From: Escherichia coli
GTDB taxonomy: Bacteria > Pseudomonadota > Gammaproteobacteria > Enterobacterales > Enterobacteriaceae
Assembly: GCF_003334255.1 (NCBI RefSeq)
Contig: NZ_QOWU01000014.1
Length of the DNA: 64,000 nt
Strand: one strand, 5' to 3'
Under the pieces are notes generated by a model. The model was not told the origin of the DNA. It did not search any database and worked only from the letters and a program-made list of their open reading frames with translations. Below, piece by piece: positions 13,919-64,000 of this stretch; position 1 is the first letter of the stretch, and each line of letters begins with the position of its first letter. The position numbers and the translations under genes are program-made.

Positions 13919-14026
13919 ATATTTGGACAAAACGCAAACTGTGATCGATACTCAACTATGCACTAAATACGTCAAAATTCGTGCCGAAATTGCGCGTTCT
14001 GCGCGGAACACGTATACTTTCAGTGT

Positions 14027-14101
14027 TGACATAATACAGTGTGCTTTGCGGTTACCAGCCGCAGGCGACTGACGAAACCTCGCTCCGGCGGGGTTTTTTG
14101 T
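14027..14101 (+). ncRNA. istR: IstR-1 antitoxin sRNA (the longer IstR-2 would start ~65 nt upstream)
   Basis: …gttgacataatacagtgtgctttgcggttaccagccgcaggcgactgacgaaacctcgctccggcggggtttttt matches my recollection of IstR ending in its intrinsic terminator. 5' end is approximate. Confidence 0.65.
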
Positions 14102-30900: not shown

Positions 30901-30995
30901 TGGCGGAAGATCACAGGAGTCGAACCTGCCCGGGACCGCTGGCGGCCCCAACTGGATTTGAAGTCCAGCCGCCTCACCGGAGACGACGATCTTCC
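30901..30995 (-). tRNA. selC: tRNA-Sec (selenocysteine, UCA anticodon)
   Basis: Reverse complement of 30901..30995 is GGAAGATCGTCGTCTCCGGTGAGGCGGCTGGACTTCAAATCCAGTTGGGGCCGCCAGCGGTCCCGGGCAGGTTCGACTCCTGTGATCTTCCGCCA, recognised as E. coli selC. Confidence 0.9.
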
Positions 30996-52128: not shown

Positions 52129-52725
52129 TTACTGCAACTGCGCGGCAATTAGCGGCCAGCGGGCGTCAAAATCATCCGTCGGGCGGTATTTAAATTCGCT
52201 GCGGACAAAACGTGACAGCATACCTTCACAGAAGGCCAGGATCTGGCTTGCCAGCAGGGTTTCATCGGTGGTGTAACCTTCACCCTCACGCATTCTCTTT
52301 TCACGCAATACCTGACGCAGCTGCGCTTCAATACGCTCGAACAGCTGGTTGATACGCCCTTGCAGGCGATCCTGTTCAAACATCAGCGCATGACCAGTGA
52401 GGATGCGGGTCAGGCCAGGATTACGCTCACCAAAACCGAGAAGCAGCAACACAATCAGACGCAGGCGCGCTGTGGTGTCTTTCTCATCTTTCAGAATCAG
52501 GTTGATGCGAGTAATCAGGCTATCTTCGATAAACTCAATCAGGCTATCGAACATGCGGGTCTTACTGGGGAAGTGGCGATACAGTGCCGCTTCGGAAACG
52601 CCGACAGAGGCGGCCAGTTTTGCCGTCGTGATACGTTGGCTTCCATCGCTGGATTCCAGCATCAGCGCCAGAGACTGAAGTATTTCCTCGCGACGGTTCC
52701 TTTTCGCAGTTTGTTTTTCTGCCAT
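52129..52725 (-). CDS. slmA: Nucleoid occlusion factor SlmA (TetR family)
   Basis: ORF 52129..52767 minus; start at [23 protein letters not shown] with TetR HTH. Confidence 0.85.
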
Positions 52726-52831
52726 GTTACAAAATACCCCTGAAAATAAGCACTTGCCAGGCGGCACCCACGCTATGACCGCAAACGAAATGTTTGCGGC
52801 TATGTTATGACGTTATTCGGATGCGTATGTG

Positions 52832-53290
52832 TTACTGACGACCAGAGTGACCAAAGCCGCCTTCACCGCGGTCGGTGGCGTCGAAATCTTCCACCAGATT
52901 AAATTCAGCCTGTACTACCGGAACAAAAATCATCTGGGCGATGCGTTCGCCAGGTTGAATGGTGAAGCTGTCCTGACCACGGTTCCAAACGGAAATCATC
53001 AACTGGCCCTGATAGTCAGAATCGATCAATCCTACCAGGTTACCAAGCACGATACCGTGCTTATGTCCCAATCCGGAGCGCGGCAGCATCATTGCCGCCA
53101 GTGAAGGATCGGCAATATGAATCGCCAGCCCGGTCGGAACCAGCGTAGTGTCACCCGGAGCCAGTTCTACGGCGTCGTCGAGACAGGCACGCAGGTCAAG
53201 TCCGGCAGAGCCAGAGGTGGCATAAGTCGGGAGCGGAAATTCCTTCCCAACGCGCGGGTCCAGAATCTTAACGTCGATTTTTTTCATCAT
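52832..53290 (-). CDS. dut: dUTP pyrophosphatase
   Basis: 152-aa [38 protein letters not shown]. Confidence 0.9.
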
Positions 53291-54488
53291 AACGGGTCAC
53301 GATCTCGTCGAGTAATAATTGGCCAAGGAGCTCTTTGCGCTCAAGCGGTAAGACTTTATCTCCGTCCTGCCAGAAAAGGTGTAATGCGTTGTTGTCGCTG
53401 TTAAATCCTTGAGTTGGCTGGGAAACATCGTTCGCGCAGATCAGATCAAGGTTTTTACGGATACGTTTTTGCCGGGCGTATTCTTCCACATTATTTGTTT
53501 CGGCGGCAAATCCAACGACGTAGGGTCGATGGTCTTTTAGTGCGGCAACGCCTGCGACGATATCGGGGTTTTTAACCATTTTTATTGTTAATTCATCACC
53601 CTGCGTGGCCTGCTTTTTGATTTTTTCTGGGGCCACGGTAGCTGCGCGATAATCCGCCACGGCGGCGCAACCGATAAAAATATTTTGCTGCTGTACAGAA
53701 GCATTCACGGCGGCTTCCATTTCCAGCGCGGTCATCACATCAACACGTTTAACAAACGGTGGCGTCGGTAGTGAAACCGGACCTGATACCAGCGTGACGT
53801 TCGCGCCACGACGGGCAGCGGCGGCGGCGATAGCAAAACCCATCTTGCCGGAGCTGTGATTAGAGATATAACGCACCGGATCGAGCGGTTCACGCGTCGG
53901 GCCGGCGGTAATCATAATGTTCAGATGTTTCAGGTCGTTGACGGGCGAAAAATGCGCTACCGCCATATCCACAATGGTTAATGGATCGAGCATTCGCCCT
54001 GGGCCGATATCACCACAAGCCTGACTGCCACTGTCTGGCCCCCAGATCAGCAAACCACGGGAAGCAAGCACCTCTAAATTATGCTGCGTGGCAGCGGCAC
54101 GGTACATCTGCTGGTTCATGGCGGGGAGCACGGCTACAGGCGCAGGTGTAGCCAGACAAATCGTCGATACCAGGTCATTCGCCATTCCGGCAGCAACACG
54201 GGCAATCAAATCTGCCGTGGCAGGGGCGAGAATCACTAAATCAGCCCATTTACCCAGCTCAATATGGCCCATAGCGGCTTCGGCTGCCGGGTCCAGCAGA
54301 CTGTCGGAAACGGGATAACCAGAAACCGCCTGCAAGCTAAGTGGGGTGATAAAGGCTTTTGCCGCTTCGGTCATGGCTACGCGGACGTCGGCCCCGCGAT
54401 CGCGCAAACGACGCACCAGTTCAGGGGTTTTATAGGCAGCAATACCGCCGCTAACGCCGAGAACGATTTTTTTACCGGCCAGGCTCAT
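53268..54488 (-). CDS. coaBC: Bifunctional phosphopantothenoylcysteine decarboxylase/synthetase
   Basis: ORF 53268..54560 minus; start at [28 protein letters not shown]. 3' end overlaps dut. Confidence 0.9.
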
Positions 54489-54659
54489 GATGATTTTTCC
54501 TGTTGGGTGACACCAGAAGTTGGCGATTTTATCACAATACTTTTGTTGTCGTGCCTTCACCTGAGATTCACTTTGCGAGGCTCTTTCCAGGATTGAAAAC
54601 TGGCCGTCGATTTAACGGAACGACTATGACAGGATGCGAGCACCACAAAGGAGGTGAAG

Positions 54660-55328
54660 GTGAAAAACAATGCACAGCTGTTGATGCCGCGCGAAAAAAT
54701 GCTGAAGTTTGGTATTAGCGCCTTAACGGATGTCGAGCTGCTGGCGCTATTTCTGCGTACCGGAACGCGCGGTAAAGATGTATTAACCCTGGCAAAAGAG
54801 ATGCTGGAGAATTTCGGCTCTCTTTATGGCTTGTTAACCTCTGAATATGAACAATTTAGTGGTGTTCATGGAATTGGCGTAGCGAAATTTGCCCAGTTAA
54901 AGGGGATTGCTGAACTGGCGCGACGTTACTACAACGTGCGGATGCGTGAAGAAAGCCCTTTACTCAGCCCGGAGATGACGCGGGAATTTTTACAAAGCCA
55001 GCTCACGGGTGAGGAGCGGGAGATCTTTATGGTGATCTTTCTCGACTCCCAACACCGGGTTATAACGCATAGCCGTCTTTTTTCCGGCACGCTAAACCAT
55101 GTTGAAGTCCATCCTCGGGAAATTATCCGCGAAGCGATAAAAATAAACGCCTCGGCGCTGATCCTTGCACATAATCATCCTTCGGGTTGTGCTGAACCCA
55201 GTAAAGCGGATAAACTCATTACTGAACGGATAATAAAGAGTTGTCAGTTCATGGATTTACGCGTGCTCGACCATATCGTGATTGGGCGTGGAGAGTATGT
55301 TTCTTTTGCCGAACGCGGCTGGATTTAA
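54660..55328 (+). CDS. radC: RadC-like JAB-domain protein (YicR)
   Basis: ORF 54654..55328; JAMM motif HNHPSG. GTG start assumed at 54660. Confidence 0.8.
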
Positions 55329-55523
55329 CCCGCTATGCGCGATCCTTCGGGATCTTTGTCTGTTCGGGACTTGAGCACATCGCTGAGTCAGCGTATACTA
55401 CGCCACCTTTGAGAATCTCGGGTTTGGCATTTGGGCCTGGCAATCGAGAGTTCACATAGAACTGCGATGACCGGGCTGTAAAGCCTGACGAGGCGCCAAT
55501 ACCCCATACGAAGCTCGAGCTAA

Positions 55524-55781
<258 letters not shown>

Positions 55782-55798
55782 GTACTTAGAGGAAATAA

Positions 55799-55969
<171 letters not shown>

Positions 55970-55991
55970 TTCTCGCTTTGATGTAACGAAA

Positions 55992-56017
55992 AACCTCGCT
56001 CCGGCGGGGTTTTTTGT
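55992..56017 (+). terminator. Intrinsic terminator after rpmG
   Basis: cctcgc-tccg-gcgggg hairpin followed by six T; the same 33 nt occur at 14076..14108. Confidence 0.65.
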
Positions 56018-56066
56018 TATCTGCTTACCCCCATATTGATTGCATCTGTTCATTCCTGGAGATGCT

Positions 56067-56876
56067 ATGCCTGAATTACCCGAAGTTGAAACCAGCCGCC
56101 GCGGCATAGAACCGCATCTCGTTGGTGCAACCATTCTTCATGCTGTGGTGCGCAACGGACGCTTGCGCTGGCCGGTTTCAGAAGAGATCTACCGATTAAG
56201 CGATCAACCAGTGCTTAGCGTGCAGCGGCGGGCTAAATATCTGCTGCTGGAGCTGCCTGAGGGCTGGATTATCATTCATTTGGGGATGTCTGGCAGCCTG
56301 CGCATCCTTCCAGAAGAACTTCCCCCTGAGAAGCATGACCATGTTGATTTGGTGATGAGCAACGGCAAAGTGCTGCGCTACACCGATCCGCGCCGCTTTG
56401 GTGCCTGGCTGTGGACCAAAGAGCTGGAAGGGCACAACGTGCTGGCCCATCTTGGACCGGAGCCGCTTAGCGACGATTTCAACGGTGAGTACCTGCATCA
56501 GAAGTGCGCGAAGAAAAAAACGGCGATTAAACCGTGGCTGATGGATAACAAGCTGGTGGTAGGGGTAGGTAATATTTATGCCAGCGAATCACTGTTTGCG
56601 GCGGGGATCCATCCGGATCGGCTGGCGTCATCACTGTCGCTGGCAGAGTGTGAATTGTTAGCTCGGGTGATTAAAGCGGTGTTGCTGCGTTCGATTGAGC
56701 AGGGTGGTACAACGCTGAAAGATTTTCTGCAAAGTGATGGTAAACCGGGCTATTTCGCGCAGGAATTGCAGGTTTACGGGCGAAAAGGCGAGCCGTGTCG
56801 GGTGTGCGGTACGCCGATTGTGGCGACTAAACATGCGCAGCGGGCAACGTTTTATTGTCGGCAGTGCCAGAAGTAA
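56067..56876 (+). CDS. mutM: Formamidopyrimidine-DNA glycosylase
   Basis: ORF 56040..56876; start at [13 protein letters not shown]; C-terminal zinc finger CRVCGTPI…CRQCQ. Confidence 0.9.
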
Positions 56877-56914
56877 TTCATGCGCGCCGGATGGCATACC
56901 ATCCGGCATAAACG

Positions 56915-58679
<1,765 letters not shown>

Positions 58680-59050
58680 AGTAAATAGCTGACTTATGGA
58701 TGTGCTGGGGATTCTATGTATTTAGCTGTGGCTTTACCATTACTTTTCCCGTTTTTGACTTAAATAGCAATTTACCCGCCAATTCTTGCTGAACATCTAT
58801 ACTTTTTTTGTATTTTTATGCGATTCATTGATTTCTGCTGTACGTGCAGGAAGGAATCGCAGAGCAACAGTGAAAGAATATGGTTGCTAATGATTTTATT
58901 TGATTGATTTCTTTATTGAAAATCAACAATGTGCTTAAAAATCATTCGGGTCGGATTGCCGCGAAAGAAGTGATACACTAGCGCGTCAATATCAGTGCGG
59001 TATCAGTATTCAGGTAGCTGTTGAGCCTGGGGCGGTAGCGTGCTTTTTCT

Positions 59051-59062
59051 GCTTCACCTTAA
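59051..59062 (+). promoter_or_regulatory. ops element within a JUMPstart-like sequence upstream of waaQ
   Basis: GGCGGTAGCGTG, exact match to the ops motif as I recall it, in the 5' leader of the waaQ operon. Confidence 0.6.
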
Positions 59063-59091
59063 TCGGATAATCTCAACAAAAAGAGTTACTT

Positions 59092-60150
59092 GTGGATAAG
59101 CCATTTCGAAGAATTTTGCTCATTAAGATGCGTTTTCATGGGGATATGTTATTAACTACTCCCGTCATTAGTTCGCTGAAAAAAAATTACCCTGACGCAA
59201 AAATCGATGTGCTGCTTTATCAGGACACCATCCCGATCCTGTCTGAAAATCCAGAGATTAACGCGCTCTACGGCATAAAAAATAAAAAAGCAAAAGCCTC
59301 AGAAAAAATTGCCAACTTTTTTCATCTCATCAAGGTATTACGTGCCAATAAGTATGACCTTATCGTCAATCTTACCGATCAATGGATGGTTGCTATACTG
59401 GTTCGCTTATTAAATGCTCGTGTGAAAATTTCCCAGGATTATCATCATCGGCAGTCTGCTTTTTGGCGTAAAAGTTTCACCCATTTGGTGCCGTTGCAGG
59501 GTGGAAATGTGGTGGAAAGTAACTTATCCGTGCTGACACCATTGGGACTTGATTCGTTGGTGAAGCAGACAACCATGAGTTACCCGCCTGCAAGCTGGAA
59601 ACGTATGCGTCGCGAACTTGATCACGCTGGTGTTGGACAAAATTATGTGGTTATCCAACCTACGGCGCGGCAAATCTTCAAATGCTGGGACAACGCCAAG
59701 TTTTCCGCTGTGATTGATGCCTTACATGCTAGTGGTTATGAAGTCGTTCTGACGTCCGGCCCGGATAAAGACGATCTGGCCTGCGTCAATGAAATTGCGC
59801 AGGGATGCCAGACGCCACCAGTAACGGCGCTGGCTGGAAAGGTGACCTTCCCGGAACTTGGTGCGTTAATCGATCATGCGCAGCTGTTTATTGGCGTTGA
59901 TTCCGCACCGGCGCATATTGCCGCTGCAGTTAATACGCCGCTGATATCGCTGTTTGGTGCGACAGACCATATTTTCTGGCGTCCCTGGTCAAATAACATG
60001 ATTCAATTCTGGGCGGGAGATTACCGGGAAATGCCAACGCGCGATCAGCGTGACCGAAATGAGATGTATCTTTCGGTTATTCCGGCGGCAGATGTCATTG
60101 CTGCTGTCGATAAATTACTGCCCTTCTCCACGACAGGTACGTCGTTATGA
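59092..60150 (+). CDS. waaQ: LPS core heptosyltransferase III (GT9)
   Basis: ORF with non-ATG start at 59092; true start may be 59116 or the ATG at 59128. Product matches WaaQ. Confidence 0.8.
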   Translation: MDKPFRRILLIKMRFHGDMLLTTPVISSLKKNYPDAKIDVLLYQDTIPILSENPEINALYGIKNKKAKASEKIANFFHLIKVLRANKYDLIVNLTDQWMVAILVRLLNARVKISQDYHHRQSAFWRKSFTHLVPLQGGNVVESNLSVLTPLGLDSLVKQTTMSYPPASWKRMRRELDHAGVGQNYVVIQPTARQIFKCWDNAKFSAVIDALHASGYEVVLTSGPDKDDLACVNEIAQGCQTPPVTALAGKVTFPELGALIDHAQLFIGVDSAPAHIAAAVNTPLISLFGATDHIFWRPWSNNMIQFWAGDYREMPTRDQRDRNEMYLSVIPAADVIAAVDKLLPFSTTGTSL

Positions 60151-61271
60151 TCGTTGCTTTTTGTTTATATAAATATTTTCCCTTTGGCGGTTTGCAGCGC
60201 GATTTTATGCGTATTGCTCAGACAGTCGCCGCCCGAGGTCATCATGTTCGGGTTTATACCCAGTCGTGGGAAGGCGAATGCCCTGATGTATTTGAACTGA
60301 TCAAAGTGCCGGTTAAATCGCATACCAATCACGGGCGCAATGCGGAGTATTTTACCTGGGTGCAAAAACATTTACGCGAACATCCCGTCGATAAAGTCGT
60401 TGGATTCAACAAAATGCCGGGGCTGGACGTTTATTATGCCGCTGATGTTTGTTATGCCGAGAAAGTAGCGCAGGAGAAAGGCTTTTTCTATCGCCTGACG
60501 TCACGTTATCGCCATTATGCCGCCTTTGAGCGGGCAACCTTCGAACAGGGCAAGCCGACACAGCTGCTGATGCTGACAGATAAGCAAATCGCCGATTTCC
60601 AGAAACATTATCAGACTGAAGCGGAGCGTTTTCATATTCTGCCACCGGGGATTTATCCTGATCGTAAATATAGCCAGCAGCCAGCCAATAGCCGTGAAAT
60701 CTTCCGTAAGAAGAATGGAATAACCGAACAACAATATTTATTGTTGCAGGTCGGTTCAGACTTCACGCGTAAAGGTGTCGATCGTTCCATTGAAGCACTT
60801 GCTTCTTTACCGGATTCGCTGCGCCACAACACATTGCTATATGTTGTTGGGCAGGATAAACCGCGAAAATTTGAGGCGCTGGCAGAAAAACGCGGCGTGC
60901 GCAGTAATGTTCACTTCTTCTCGGGGCGCAATGATGTCTCGGAATTAATGGCGGCGGCGGATTTATTACTGCATCCTGCCTACCAGGAAGCGGCGGGAAT
61001 TGTGCTGCTGGAAGCGATTACTGCAGGATTACCGGTACTAACAACAGCCGTTTGTGGCTATGCGCCTTATATTGTCGAGGCCAATTGCGGCGAGGCTATT
61101 GCTGAGCCATTCCGCCAGGAAACATTGAATGAGATTTTACGCAAAGCGTTAACGCAATCTTCATTGCGCCAGGCCTGGGCGGAAAATGCGCGACATTATG
61201 CTGATACACAAGATTTATACAGTCTGCCAGAGAAAGCGGCGGATATCATAACGGGTGGTCTGGATGGTTGA
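60147..61271 (+). CDS. waaG: LPS core glucosyltransferase I (GT4)
   Basis: 374-aa [46 protein letters not shown]. Confidence 0.9.
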
Positions 61272-62061
61272 ACTTAAAGAGCCGTTTGCCACGTTATGGC
61301 GCGGTAAAGATCCTTTTGAGGAAGTTAAAACCTTGCAGGGTGAGATATTTCGTGAACTGGAAACTCGCCGTACTCTGCGCTTTGAAATGGCGGGAAAAAG
61401 CTATTTTCTCAAATGGCATCGCGGCACGACCCTGAAAGAGATAATCAAAAATTTACTCTCATTGCGGATGCCAGTATTAGGCGCAGACCGCGAATGGAAT
61501 GCGATTCATCGACTGCGGGATGTCGGCGTTGATACTATGTATGGGGTGGCATTCGGCGAAAAAGGCATGAATCCGCTGACCAGAACCTCGTTTATTATTA
61601 CCGAAGATCTGACACCAACCATAAGTCTGGAAGATTACTGTGCTGACTGGGCGACCAACCCACCAGATGTTCGCGTAAAGCGTATGCTTATTAAGCGTGT
61701 CGCGACGATGGTGCGCGATATGCATGCTGCGGGCATTAATCACCGTGACTGTTATATCTGTCATTTCCTGCTGCACTTGCCTTTTTCCGGTAAGGAAGAG
61801 GAGTTAAAAATTTCGGTAATTGACCTGCACCGGGCGCAGCTTCGCACGCGCGTTCCACGTCGTTGGCGCGATAAAGATCTTATTGGACTTTATTTTTCTT
61901 CGATGAATATTGGCCTGACTCAGCGGGATATCTGGCGGTTTATGAAGGTGTATTTTGCCGCTCCGCTTAAAGACATTCTCAAGCAGGAACAAGGACTGCT
62001 GTTGCAAGCAGAAGCAAAAGCCACAAAAATCAGGGAAAGAACGATTCGAAAATCGTTGTAA
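61264..62061 (+). CDS. waaP: LPS core heptose(I) kinase
   Basis: ORF 61255..62061; start at [20 protein letters not shown]. Confidence 0.85.
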
Positions 62062-62103
62062 CCCGTAACTTATTTTTGCCAAAATTTTGGATACAGAATA
62101 AAT

Positions 62104-63111
62104 ATGTCTCAACTCAATGATAGTGACATCATCCTTTTTGAGTATAATTTTCATTATCAAAATATAAGATCTAAAAATACTCTTGATATAGCATTTGGTA
62201 TTGACAGAAATTTTCTTTTTGGATGTGGTGTAGCCATCGCATCTATTCTATTAAACAATAGAGAAATCTCTTGTGAATTTCATGTTTTCACAGATTATAT
62301 CAGTGATAAAGACAAATTATATTTTTCTGATTTAGCAAAACAATATAATTCAAGAATTAATATTTATGTTATCAATTGTGATAAGCTGAAGTCATTACCA
62401 AGCACGAAAAACTGGACTTACGCAACATATTTTCGATTTATAATTGCAGATTATTTCTATCATAAACATGAAAAAATACTATATCTTGATGCAGATATTG
62501 CTTGCAAGGGTAGTATTAAAGAACTCTTAGATTATCAATTTTCTACTAATGAAATTGCCGCAGTTGTAGCTGAAAGAGATGTTGAATGGTGGCAAAATCG
62601 AGCCTCGGTATTAACTACACCACAGTTAGCTTCTGGATATTTCAATGCTGGTTTTTTACTGATAAATATTGATGAGTGGAATCTAAATAACATTTCGTCA
62701 AAAGCTATTGAAATGTTGCGTGACCCAGATTGGGTAAGTAAAATCACCCACCTTGATCAAGATGTACTGAATGTATTATTGAATGGTAAAGTGAAGTTTA
62801 TTTCGGAGAAATATAATACCCGATATAGTATTAACTATGAATTAAAAGACAAAGTTGATAATCCAGTCAATGATGACACCGTGTTTATACACTATGTGGG
62901 ACCTACAAAACCCTGGCATGAGTGGGCTGACTATCCGGTGTCACGTAGTTTTTTGATCGCCAAAGCAGCTTCTCCGTGGAGTAAAGAAGATTTACTTAAA
63001 CCTGTAAATAGCAATCAGTATCGGTATTGTGCAAAACATAAATTTAAACAAAAGCATTATATGGCAGGCATTTTTAATTATTTAAAGTATTATAAAGAAA
63101 AATGCTTCTAA
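62104..63111 (+). CDS. LPS outer-core alpha-1,3-glycosyltransferase, GT8 family (WaaI/WaaO-like)
   Basis: 335-aa ORF with GT8 N-terminal pattern …LDIAFGIDRNFLFGCGVAIASIL… and DxD region. AT-rich. Confidence 0.7.
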   Translation: MSQLNDSDIILFEYNFHYQNIRSKNTLDIAFGIDRNFLFGCGVAIASILLNNREISCEFHVFTDYISDKDKLYFSDLAKQYNSRINIYVINCDKLKSLPSTKNWTYATYFRFIIADYFYHKHEKILYLDADIACKGSIKELLDYQFSTNEIAAVVAERDVEWWQNRASVLTTPQLASGYFNAGFLLINIDEWNLNNISSKAIEMLRDPDWVSKITHLDQDVLNVLLNGKVKFISEKYNTRYSINYELKDKVDNPVNDDTVFIHYVGPTKPWHEWADYPVSRSFLIAKAASPWSKEDLLKPVNSNQYRYCAKHKFKQKHYMAGIFNYLKYYKEKCF

Positions 63112-63136
63112 AGATTTAAGGTTAAAATAATTCATT

Positions 63137-63844
63137 ATGATATATAATAAAACGATAAATGGGTTGAAAGTTTTCATAAAAGATAATGATCCCTTTTATG
63201 AGCAAGTTCTAAATGACTTTTTAACTTGCAGGGTTAAAACATTAAAAGTTTTTCGTTCTATTGATGATACTAAAGTCATTCTTATTGACACTGCTCGTGG
63301 ACCTCTTGTACTTAAAGTTTATGCGCCAAAGCATAAAATGACCGAACGTTTCTTAAAATCTTGCATAAAAAAAGATTATTATGAAAATTTAATTTATCAA
63401 ACCGATCGGGTACGTGGTGAAGGCATCCAATCAATTAATGACTATTTTTTGCTAGCTGAACGTAAAACATTAAATTTCGCTCATTATTATATTATGCTCA
63501 TTGAGTATATTGAAGGTGTCGGGTTAAATGAGTATTTGGAAATTTCTGAAGATCTGAAGGATCAATTATCAGAATCGATAAAAGAGTTGCATCAGCATGG
63601 AATGGTGTCTGGCGATCCTCATAAAGGAAATTTTATAGTATCCGAAAAAGGTTTAAGACTAATTGACCTTTCAGGTAAAAAAACAACCGCTGTTTTAAAA
63701 GCAAAAGATCGCATTGATCTTGAACGGCACTATAATATAAAAAATGAATTGAAAGACTTTGGCTATACATATCTTATATTCAAAAAGAAAATTAAAAAAG
63801 TAATCAGGGATGTAAAAGTCAAACTAGGATTGAAGAGCAAATAA
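63137..63844 (+). CDS. waaY: LPS core heptose(II) kinase, WaaY-like
   Basis: 235-aa ORF with kinase-like …LHQHGMVSGDPHKGNFIV…IDLSGK… resembling WaaY. AT-rich. Confidence 0.75.
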   Translation: MIYNKTINGLKVFIKDNDPFYEQVLNDFLTCRVKTLKVFRSIDDTKVILIDTARGPLVLKVYAPKHKMTERFLKSCIKKDYYENLIYQTDRVRGEGIQSINDYFLLAERKTLNFAHYYIMLIEYIEGVGLNEYLEISEDLKDQLSESIKELHQHGMVSGDPHKGNFIVSEKGLRLIDLSGKKTTAVLKAKDRIDLERHYNIKNELKDFGYTYLIFKKKIKKVIRDVKVKLGLKSK

Positions 63845-63868
63845 TGATTATGATGAAGGGTAATTAAA

Positions 63869-64000
63869 TTGGATTTTAAACATCTTACTCAATTTAAAGA
63901 TATAATTGAACTGGACAAGCGCCCCGTTAAACTTGATGAACGGGAAACGTTTAATGTCTCATGGGGTATTGATGAGAACTACCAGGTTGGGGCTGCGATT
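63869..64000 (+). CDS. Second GT8-family LPS outer-core glycosyltransferase, 5' part only (runs out of window)
   Basis: Frame from 63869 gives …ETFNVSWGIDENYQVGAAI, a GT8 N-terminal motif. No ATG in frame, so the start is uncertain. Confidence 0.45.
   Translation, partial: MDFKHLTQFKDIIELDKRPVKLDERETFNVSWGIDENYQVGAAI

Follow-up and report, generated by a model that had tools for sequence, protein, structure and literature searches.

Recruitment of the anti-termination factor RfaH to RNA polymerase depends on the ops element, and the 12-nt oligonucleotide of the structural work on RfaH, ops12, reads GGCGGTAGCGTG (PMC5995543). The paused polymerase exposes the non-template strand of ops, which forms a small hairpin with T6 flipped out and recruits RfaH; G4, G5, A7 and G8 are essential for this recruitment, and T11-G12 drives the pause (PMC5995543). 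The element is cited as a model case of the consensus pause (PMC5995543). When set against the consensus elemental pause (G-11 G-10 ... Y-1 G+1), ops gives G1 and G2 at -11/-10 and T11 and G12 at -1/+1, with the RNA 3' end at U11. Unlike in a plain elemental pause, its central bases G4, G5, A7 and G8 are read by RfaH and not by the polymerase, and it is therefore a factor-loading pause, a textbook case of such a site. The operons dependent on RfaH (rfb/O-antigen, kps, hly and tra, covered by the Rfam family RF01707) each carry in their 5' leaders a 39-nt JUMPstart element, which contains a stem-loop of 5 bp and has ops at its 3' end, and the distance from ops to the start codon is 40-67 nt for wzx, kps and rfa (PMC9765446).

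In the uropathogenic strain CFT073, the RfaH ChIP-seq signal extends over the rfa operon downstream of a single ops in the leader, a sigma70 peak lies upstream of this ops, and polymerase occupancy collapses toward the operon end in the delta-rfaH mutant; for K-12 two RfaH-bound operons are cited, rfa included (PMC9765446). According to reviews by its discoverers' laboratory, the 73-nt RNA RirA is located in the K-12 waaQ 5' UTR, carries ops and JUMPstart and shares its start with the waaQ mRNA (PMC6358824, PMC8745692, PMC5736990). Within the same leader a known pause named "rfaQ56U" was detected by NET-seq (PMC11077087), and Term-seq of MG1655 gave strong RNA 3' ends at 3808184 and 3808183 (PMC7815308 supplement 3).

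We analysed a 64,000-nucleotide stretch of the Escherichia coli contig NZ_QOWU01000014.1, here called the window, in which waaA and the beginning of the waa operon are arranged divergently. The Kdo transferase gene waaA occupies 57402..58679 on the minus strand with its ATG at 58679, whereas the heptosyltransferase III gene waaQ, the first gene of the operon, lies at 59092..60150 on the plus strand and starts with GTG. It is followed on the same strand by waaG (60147-61271), waaP (61264-62061), waaO (62104-63111) and waaY (63137-63844), and the operon continues beyond the window end. All these genes were taken from open reading frames together with the annotation of an O157:H7 chromosome (PGAP in the case of waaQ; coordinates shifted by +52679 for waaG to waaY), to which window positions 52680-64000 are collinear with 99.15% identity, no gaps and the same waa gene order. 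The spacer between the start of waaA at 58679 and that of waaQ at 59092 measured 412 bp, in agreement with the divergent control region of about 410 bp given in a preliminary description of this DNA.

The ops 12-mer GGCGGTAGCGTG has a single exact copy in the 64-kb window, at 59031-59042 on the plus strand. It is the same sequence as ops12 (PMC5995543), it agrees with the 12-nt ops sequence GGCGGTAGnnTG, and it lies on the non-template strand, the strand of waaQ. It forms the 3' end of a JUMPstart element of 39 nt at 59004..59042 (plus strand), which matched Rfam RF01707 over its full length (model positions 1-38) with 55.2 bits against a gathering threshold of 35; the corresponding E-value was 2e-11 for a 2-kb region and 6.4e-10 for the whole window. 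The placement of the element is that of a JUMPstart, in sense orientation just upstream of a polysaccharide cluster (waaQ, G, P, O and Y). The preliminary description had named the motif correctly but had located it wrongly at 59051..59062, the true site being 20 nt further left. Its broader interval, 59013-59063, does contain ops but omits the 9 nt at the 5' end of JUMPstart, and the distance of about 30 bp that it gave between ops and waaQ is to be corrected to 49 nt, counted from the ops end at 59042 to the GTG at 59092 (85 nt to 59128, the ATG used in the K-12 record). The motif at 59031-59042 is the known waaQ JUMPstart/ops signal, real and not a product of chance. Both this signal and the rirA counterpart described below are already known, and there is nothing new in their presence.

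Further details of the element could be read directly. The hexamer GGTAGC is doubled within it, at 59013-59018 and 59034-59039, 21 nt apart. A stem-loop at 59011..59029 (plus strand), taken from the Rfam structure line, consists of the arms CAGGT (59011-59015) and GCCTG (59025-59029) around a 9-nt loop, and all five of its five pairs are formed in the window. The first seven nucleotides of the element, CAGTATT, differ from the RF01707 consensus CAGCGCA. A C followed by a run of five T stands directly 3' of ops (59043..59048, plus strand); its role is unproven, and the T run was examined in waaQ leaders. Other Rfam matches near the site, to snoRNA and miRNA families, had E > 1 and were taken as chance, while matches elsewhere in the window, unrelated to ops, were the istR small RNA at 13970-14099 (plus strand, 150 bits) and tRNA-Sec (selC) at 30905-30995 (minus strand, 83.8 bits).

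A motif as short as ops could in principle be a functionless chance word, as words resembling its 8-mer core GGCGGTAG are common in E. coli coding sequence. The window speaks for this to the extent that it holds seven copies of GGCGGTAG against 1.41 expected from shuffles, and the 8-mer alone is undiagnostic because of this excess, which may be caused by codon-level composition bias. The full 12-mer behaves differently, being exact and unique and having no exact copy in any of 100 dinucleotide-preserving shuffles. It also sits within a 39-nt element whose Rfam E-value is 6e-10, and it is kept across genera while its flanks diverge. Among the seven GGCGGTAG sites only the copy within 59031-59042 is intergenic and has TG at positions 11-12. 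Each of the remaining six (window 3467, 24841, 39768, 48131, 51689 and 53957) falls within an open frame of 150 codons or more and has no TG at these positions, and they were rejected as additional ops elements; this agrees with the published lack of RfaH binding at ops-like sites inside genes (PMC9765446). Conservation and the covariance-model score already refute the chance reading, to which we assign a next to negligible probability.

The position of the element within the transcript was derived from K-12. The ncRNA rirA (b4760) is annotated in the MG1655 record at 3808166-3808238 on the waaQ strand, and alignment of this annotation to the window places the RirA counterpart at 58986..59057 (plus strand), with 72 nt against 73 nt in K-12 owing to a T run shorter by one T. 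The 5' end at 3808238 corresponds to 58986, which we take as the equivalent of +1 for both RirA and the waaQ mRNA. It lies 7 nt after a putative extended -10 element of the waaQ/rirA promoter, TGaTACACT, at 58971..58979 (plus strand), to which both sequence and conservation point: TGaTACACT is invariant in four E. coli spacers of different core types, and among 47 aligned leaders from about 20 genera nearly all show TGnTAcAcT at a constant distance. A simple sigma70 and terminator scan of 58600-59200 returned two weak promoter-like hits (58893-58945) and no terminator; being an extended -10 promoter whose -35 is poor, the waaQ promoter escaped it.

Counted from 58986, JUMPstart extends from +19 to +57 and ops from +46 to +57, beginning 45 nt downstream of the start, with U11 at +56. 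The Term-seq ends 3808184 and 3808183 map through the K-12 alignment to G10 and U11 of ops, that is +55/+56; these ends and the pause rfaQ56U, from two independent data sets, both fit a start at 58986 exactly. By identity with K-12 the pause position would therefore be 59040..59041 (plus strand). Between the start equivalent at 58986 and the GTG at 59092, ops falls by K-12 homology in the transcribed, untranslated waaQ leader, where it had been assigned before. A transcription start downstream of the motif, which the preliminary description had named as the finding that would speak against it, is not what the alignment gives, because the K-12 rirA/waaQ 5' end maps upstream of ops. The only open frame in the leader, a GTG at 58996 with 9 codons, was considered as a leader peptide and rejected, as it is interrupted early in other genera.

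The leader was compared with that of K-12. The two have the same 39-nt JUMPstart and the same ops 12-mer, and they agree in the extended -10, the start position, the location of ops at +46 to +57, the presence of the T run, the weak AAGAG and the GTG context. The window leader differs by four substitutions before JUMPstart, at +5, +6, +8 and +15; beyond ops its T run lacks one T, and a single base is substituted close to the 3' end of RirA. Upstream of the promoter, the spacer centre (about 58770-58930) is strongly diverged from K-12, the window carrying the majority version.

The location in a divergent control region also raises the reading of the element as a double-stranded operator, bound by a conventional transcription factor acting on the waaA and waaQ promoters. 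In its favour, MarA binds the kdtA (waaA) regulatory region in vitro, but this binding was without regulatory effect (PMC12052159) and the MarA site has not been mapped to JUMPstart. A box, TCGGATTG, conserved across about 20 genera at 58951-58958 just upstream of the extended -10, points in the same direction and could be a regulator site; as a -35 it is poor (TCGGAT, 17-nt spacing). Against it, the element occupies +19 to +57 of the waaQ transcript, over 320 bp away from waaA. The element also depends on the strand and recurs in the leaders of unrelated polysaccharide operons (median 2, maximum 4 places in an E. coli genome). We regard this reading as very improbable.

Within E. coli the region is almost invariably present. 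The 441-bp spacer region found matches in 5425 of 5426 complete genomes, and the version in the window, at 99% identity or more, accounted for 4408 of 5426 matching records, the K-12 version being a minority. The 39-mer JUMPstart was likewise found at a coverage of at least 80% in 5425 of the 5426 complete genomes; among 5441 matching records the best match reached 99% identity or more in 4908, and JUMPstart-like places numbered a median of 2 and a maximum of 4 per genome. The gene rfaH, which is located outside the window, was present in all 5426.

To look beyond the species, WaaQ protein was scanned for in one genome per species, which yielded 72 loci. Of these, 46 had an exact GGCGGTAG 37-52 nt before the waaQ match, in genera including Escherichia, Citrobacter, Salmonella, Kluyvera, Silvania, Pluralibacter, Pseudocitrobacter, Kosakonia, Cedecea, Buttiauxella, Shimwellia and Leminorella. 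In the 47 aligned leaders the flanks drift but positions 2-11 of ops do not vary, and a T run of at least four follows ops in 35. Leminorella grimontii carries a second ops-like copy, GGCGGTAGCGTT (1110-1121 of its locus record), 32 nt upstream of the canonical ops, so that the two form a tandem pair. The exact ops core was absent from the 500 nt upstream of waaQ in the other 26 of the 72 loci, mainly those of Providencia, Arsenophonus, Moellerella, Brenneria, Siccibacter and Superficieibacter (including L039-L048 and L052-L062). Allowing up to two mismatches in the upstream flank of 25 of these 26 loci recovered only a degenerate AGCGGTAGCGTA, from Kluyvera intermedia, and in the 20 of the 26 that were scanned with Rfam no part of the locus gave a JUMPstart hit. 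Most of the loci without the core nevertheless keep the GTG and AAGAG context; probably waaQ is not operon-proximal there, or a different signal is used. From these loci lacking the exact core, and from the relaxed and Rfam searches, it follows that JUMPstart/ops before waaQ is, as judged from the sequences compared, typical of the Enterobacteriaceae sensu stricto and not universal.

The JUMPstart stem is conserved along with ops. Across the 47 leaders all 229 of 229 cells were paired, whereas a slid-arm control reached at most 62%. One stem pair varies (AU in 32, GU in 13 and GC in 2), and this covariation is thin, only two cells having changed on both sides. RNAalifold recovered the stem-loop independently, and the pairing in the waaQ leaders is consistent with the JUMPstart stem-loop noted by Weinberg et al. 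(PMC2864571). The mechanism of RfaH loading at ops does not account for the 5' two-thirds of JUMPstart with this stem-loop.

A more extensive structure would give the leader a role mainly as RNA, namely as an intrinsic attenuator: a short RNA of the RirA type would be released except where RfaH, loaded at ops, brings about read-through. The proposed hairpin spans +9 to +59, with AGUGCG (58994-58999) pairing with CGUGCU (59039-59044) in the 3' half of ops, the JUMPstart stem at its tip and the U run after it. The minimum-energy fold of the leader is indeed a long imperfect hairpin at 58994-59044, but its stability does not exceed that of shuffled sequence (z = -0.66). The same fold was found independently in 42 of the 47 orthologous leaders, with a T run of at least four right after it in 34 of the 42, and 91.9% of the cells were paired against 28-54% with one arm slid; where UG has become CA in the 5' arm, wobble pairs are replaced by Watson-Crick pairs opposite the invariant ops. 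This agreement is tempered by the derivation of the structure from one of the tested sequences and by the small number of independent substitutions, by eight leaders that retain the arm without a T run, and by RNAalifold, which does not pick the long hairpin.

The transcript ends bear on the same question. A short leader RNA does exist, RirA being annotated in K-12, and the leader 3' end received an intrinsic-terminator score of 6.28 (cutoff 3) from the Term-seq authors (PMC7815308). The measured 3' ends at +55/+56, however, fall inside the proposed 3' arm, at the ops pause, and neither 7-9 nt past the stem nor at +73, and the ops pause is listed as non-hairpin-stabilised (PMC11077087). In view of the z-score, the RNAalifold result and the Term-seq ends inside the stem, the long leader hairpin was rejected as a proven structure. 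The annotated RirA 3' end at +73 (window 59057) does not coincide with the very abundant Term-seq 3' ends at +55/+56, and for this reason both the length given for the short leader RNA and its origin are to be taken as provisional. We therefore hold it unlikely that the leader works mainly as an RNA attenuator. Slightly less likely still is the specific arrangement in which the conserved 5' part of the leader, more than a passive spacer, forms the attenuator with the 3' half of ops and the U run, and the ops pause and RfaH loading choose between RirA-like release and read-through. Were it true, the released RNA would bind RfaH and a self-titrating feedback loop would be contained within JUMPstart itself. 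RirA is reported to bind RfaH and, on over-expression, to dampen its activity.

Downstream of the leader, the translation start of waaQ differs between records, PGAP placing it at the GTG at 59092 and the K-12 record at an ATG 12 codons later (window 59128). A weak Shine-Dalgarno-like AAAGAG lies at 59080..59085 (plus strand), 6 nt before the GTG. Of 71 orthologous waaQ loci, 62 keep both the GTG and the N-terminal peptide V(E/D/K)K.F..IL.IK, and most of the 71 keep AAGAG before the GTG, whereas in Brenneria and Superficieibacter CTC or TTG stands in place of the later ATG. Because the GTG, AAGAG and N-terminal peptide are conserved and the later ATG is not, the annotated K-12 start is probably too short.

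The waaA-waaQ spacer appears as a mosaic. Its first ~90 bp and last ~190 bp are near-identical across E. coli core types, while its AT-rich middle, window 58770-58930, is strongly diverged from K-12, a pattern in the sequences that suggests a recombination boundary of the variable waa region inside the spacer. In E. coli strain E2 an ISVsa5 (IS4-family) transposase gene (L004 196-1404) is found about 250 bp upstream of rfaQ; the insertion replaces the waaA-proximal part of the spacer and leaves the -10 element, JUMPstart and ops intact. Further into the operon, GC content falls to 0.28-0.37 between 62000 and 64000 (waaO, waaY and the gene after them), against 0.51 over the whole window, a low value typical of variable outer-core genes. 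Such an AT-rich downstream operon is as expected for H-NS/Rho-sensitive targets of RfaH.

On the sequence features, we consider it almost certain that 59004-59042 represents the waaQ (rfaQ) leader JUMPstart with ops as the loading site of RfaH, as the preliminary description had proposed; the canonical ops12 on the sense strand, the full JUMPstart and its place in the waaQ leader all argue for this reading, and nothing was found that contradicts it. The pause, the RfaH binding and the RfaH dependence in this strain we infer by analogy with K-12 and CFT073, and the same mechanism is expected here because JUMPstart/ops is identical to that of K-12. Polymerase would start at about 58986 from the extended -10 promoter, transcribe 56 nt and pause with the RNA 3' end at U11 of ops (59041). 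In the paused complex the non-template GGCGGTAGCGTG would be exposed and form its small hairpin, which RfaH would recognise, losing its autoinhibition and binding the polymerase in place of NusG. The modified polymerase would then resist pausing, Rho-dependent termination and H-NS roadblocks, and RfaH would in addition aid ribosome loading on a leader with a weak Shine-Dalgarno, with the result that the long AT-rich waaQGPOY... core-LPS operon would be transcribed to its end.

For this genome the use of the result lies in correct annotation, as the element marks the start of the putative RfaH-dependent waa transcription unit together with a rirA counterpart. The JUMPstart/ops signal, operating as the RfaH loading site, would explain the full-length expression of a long, AT-rich and weakly translated LPS-core operon.
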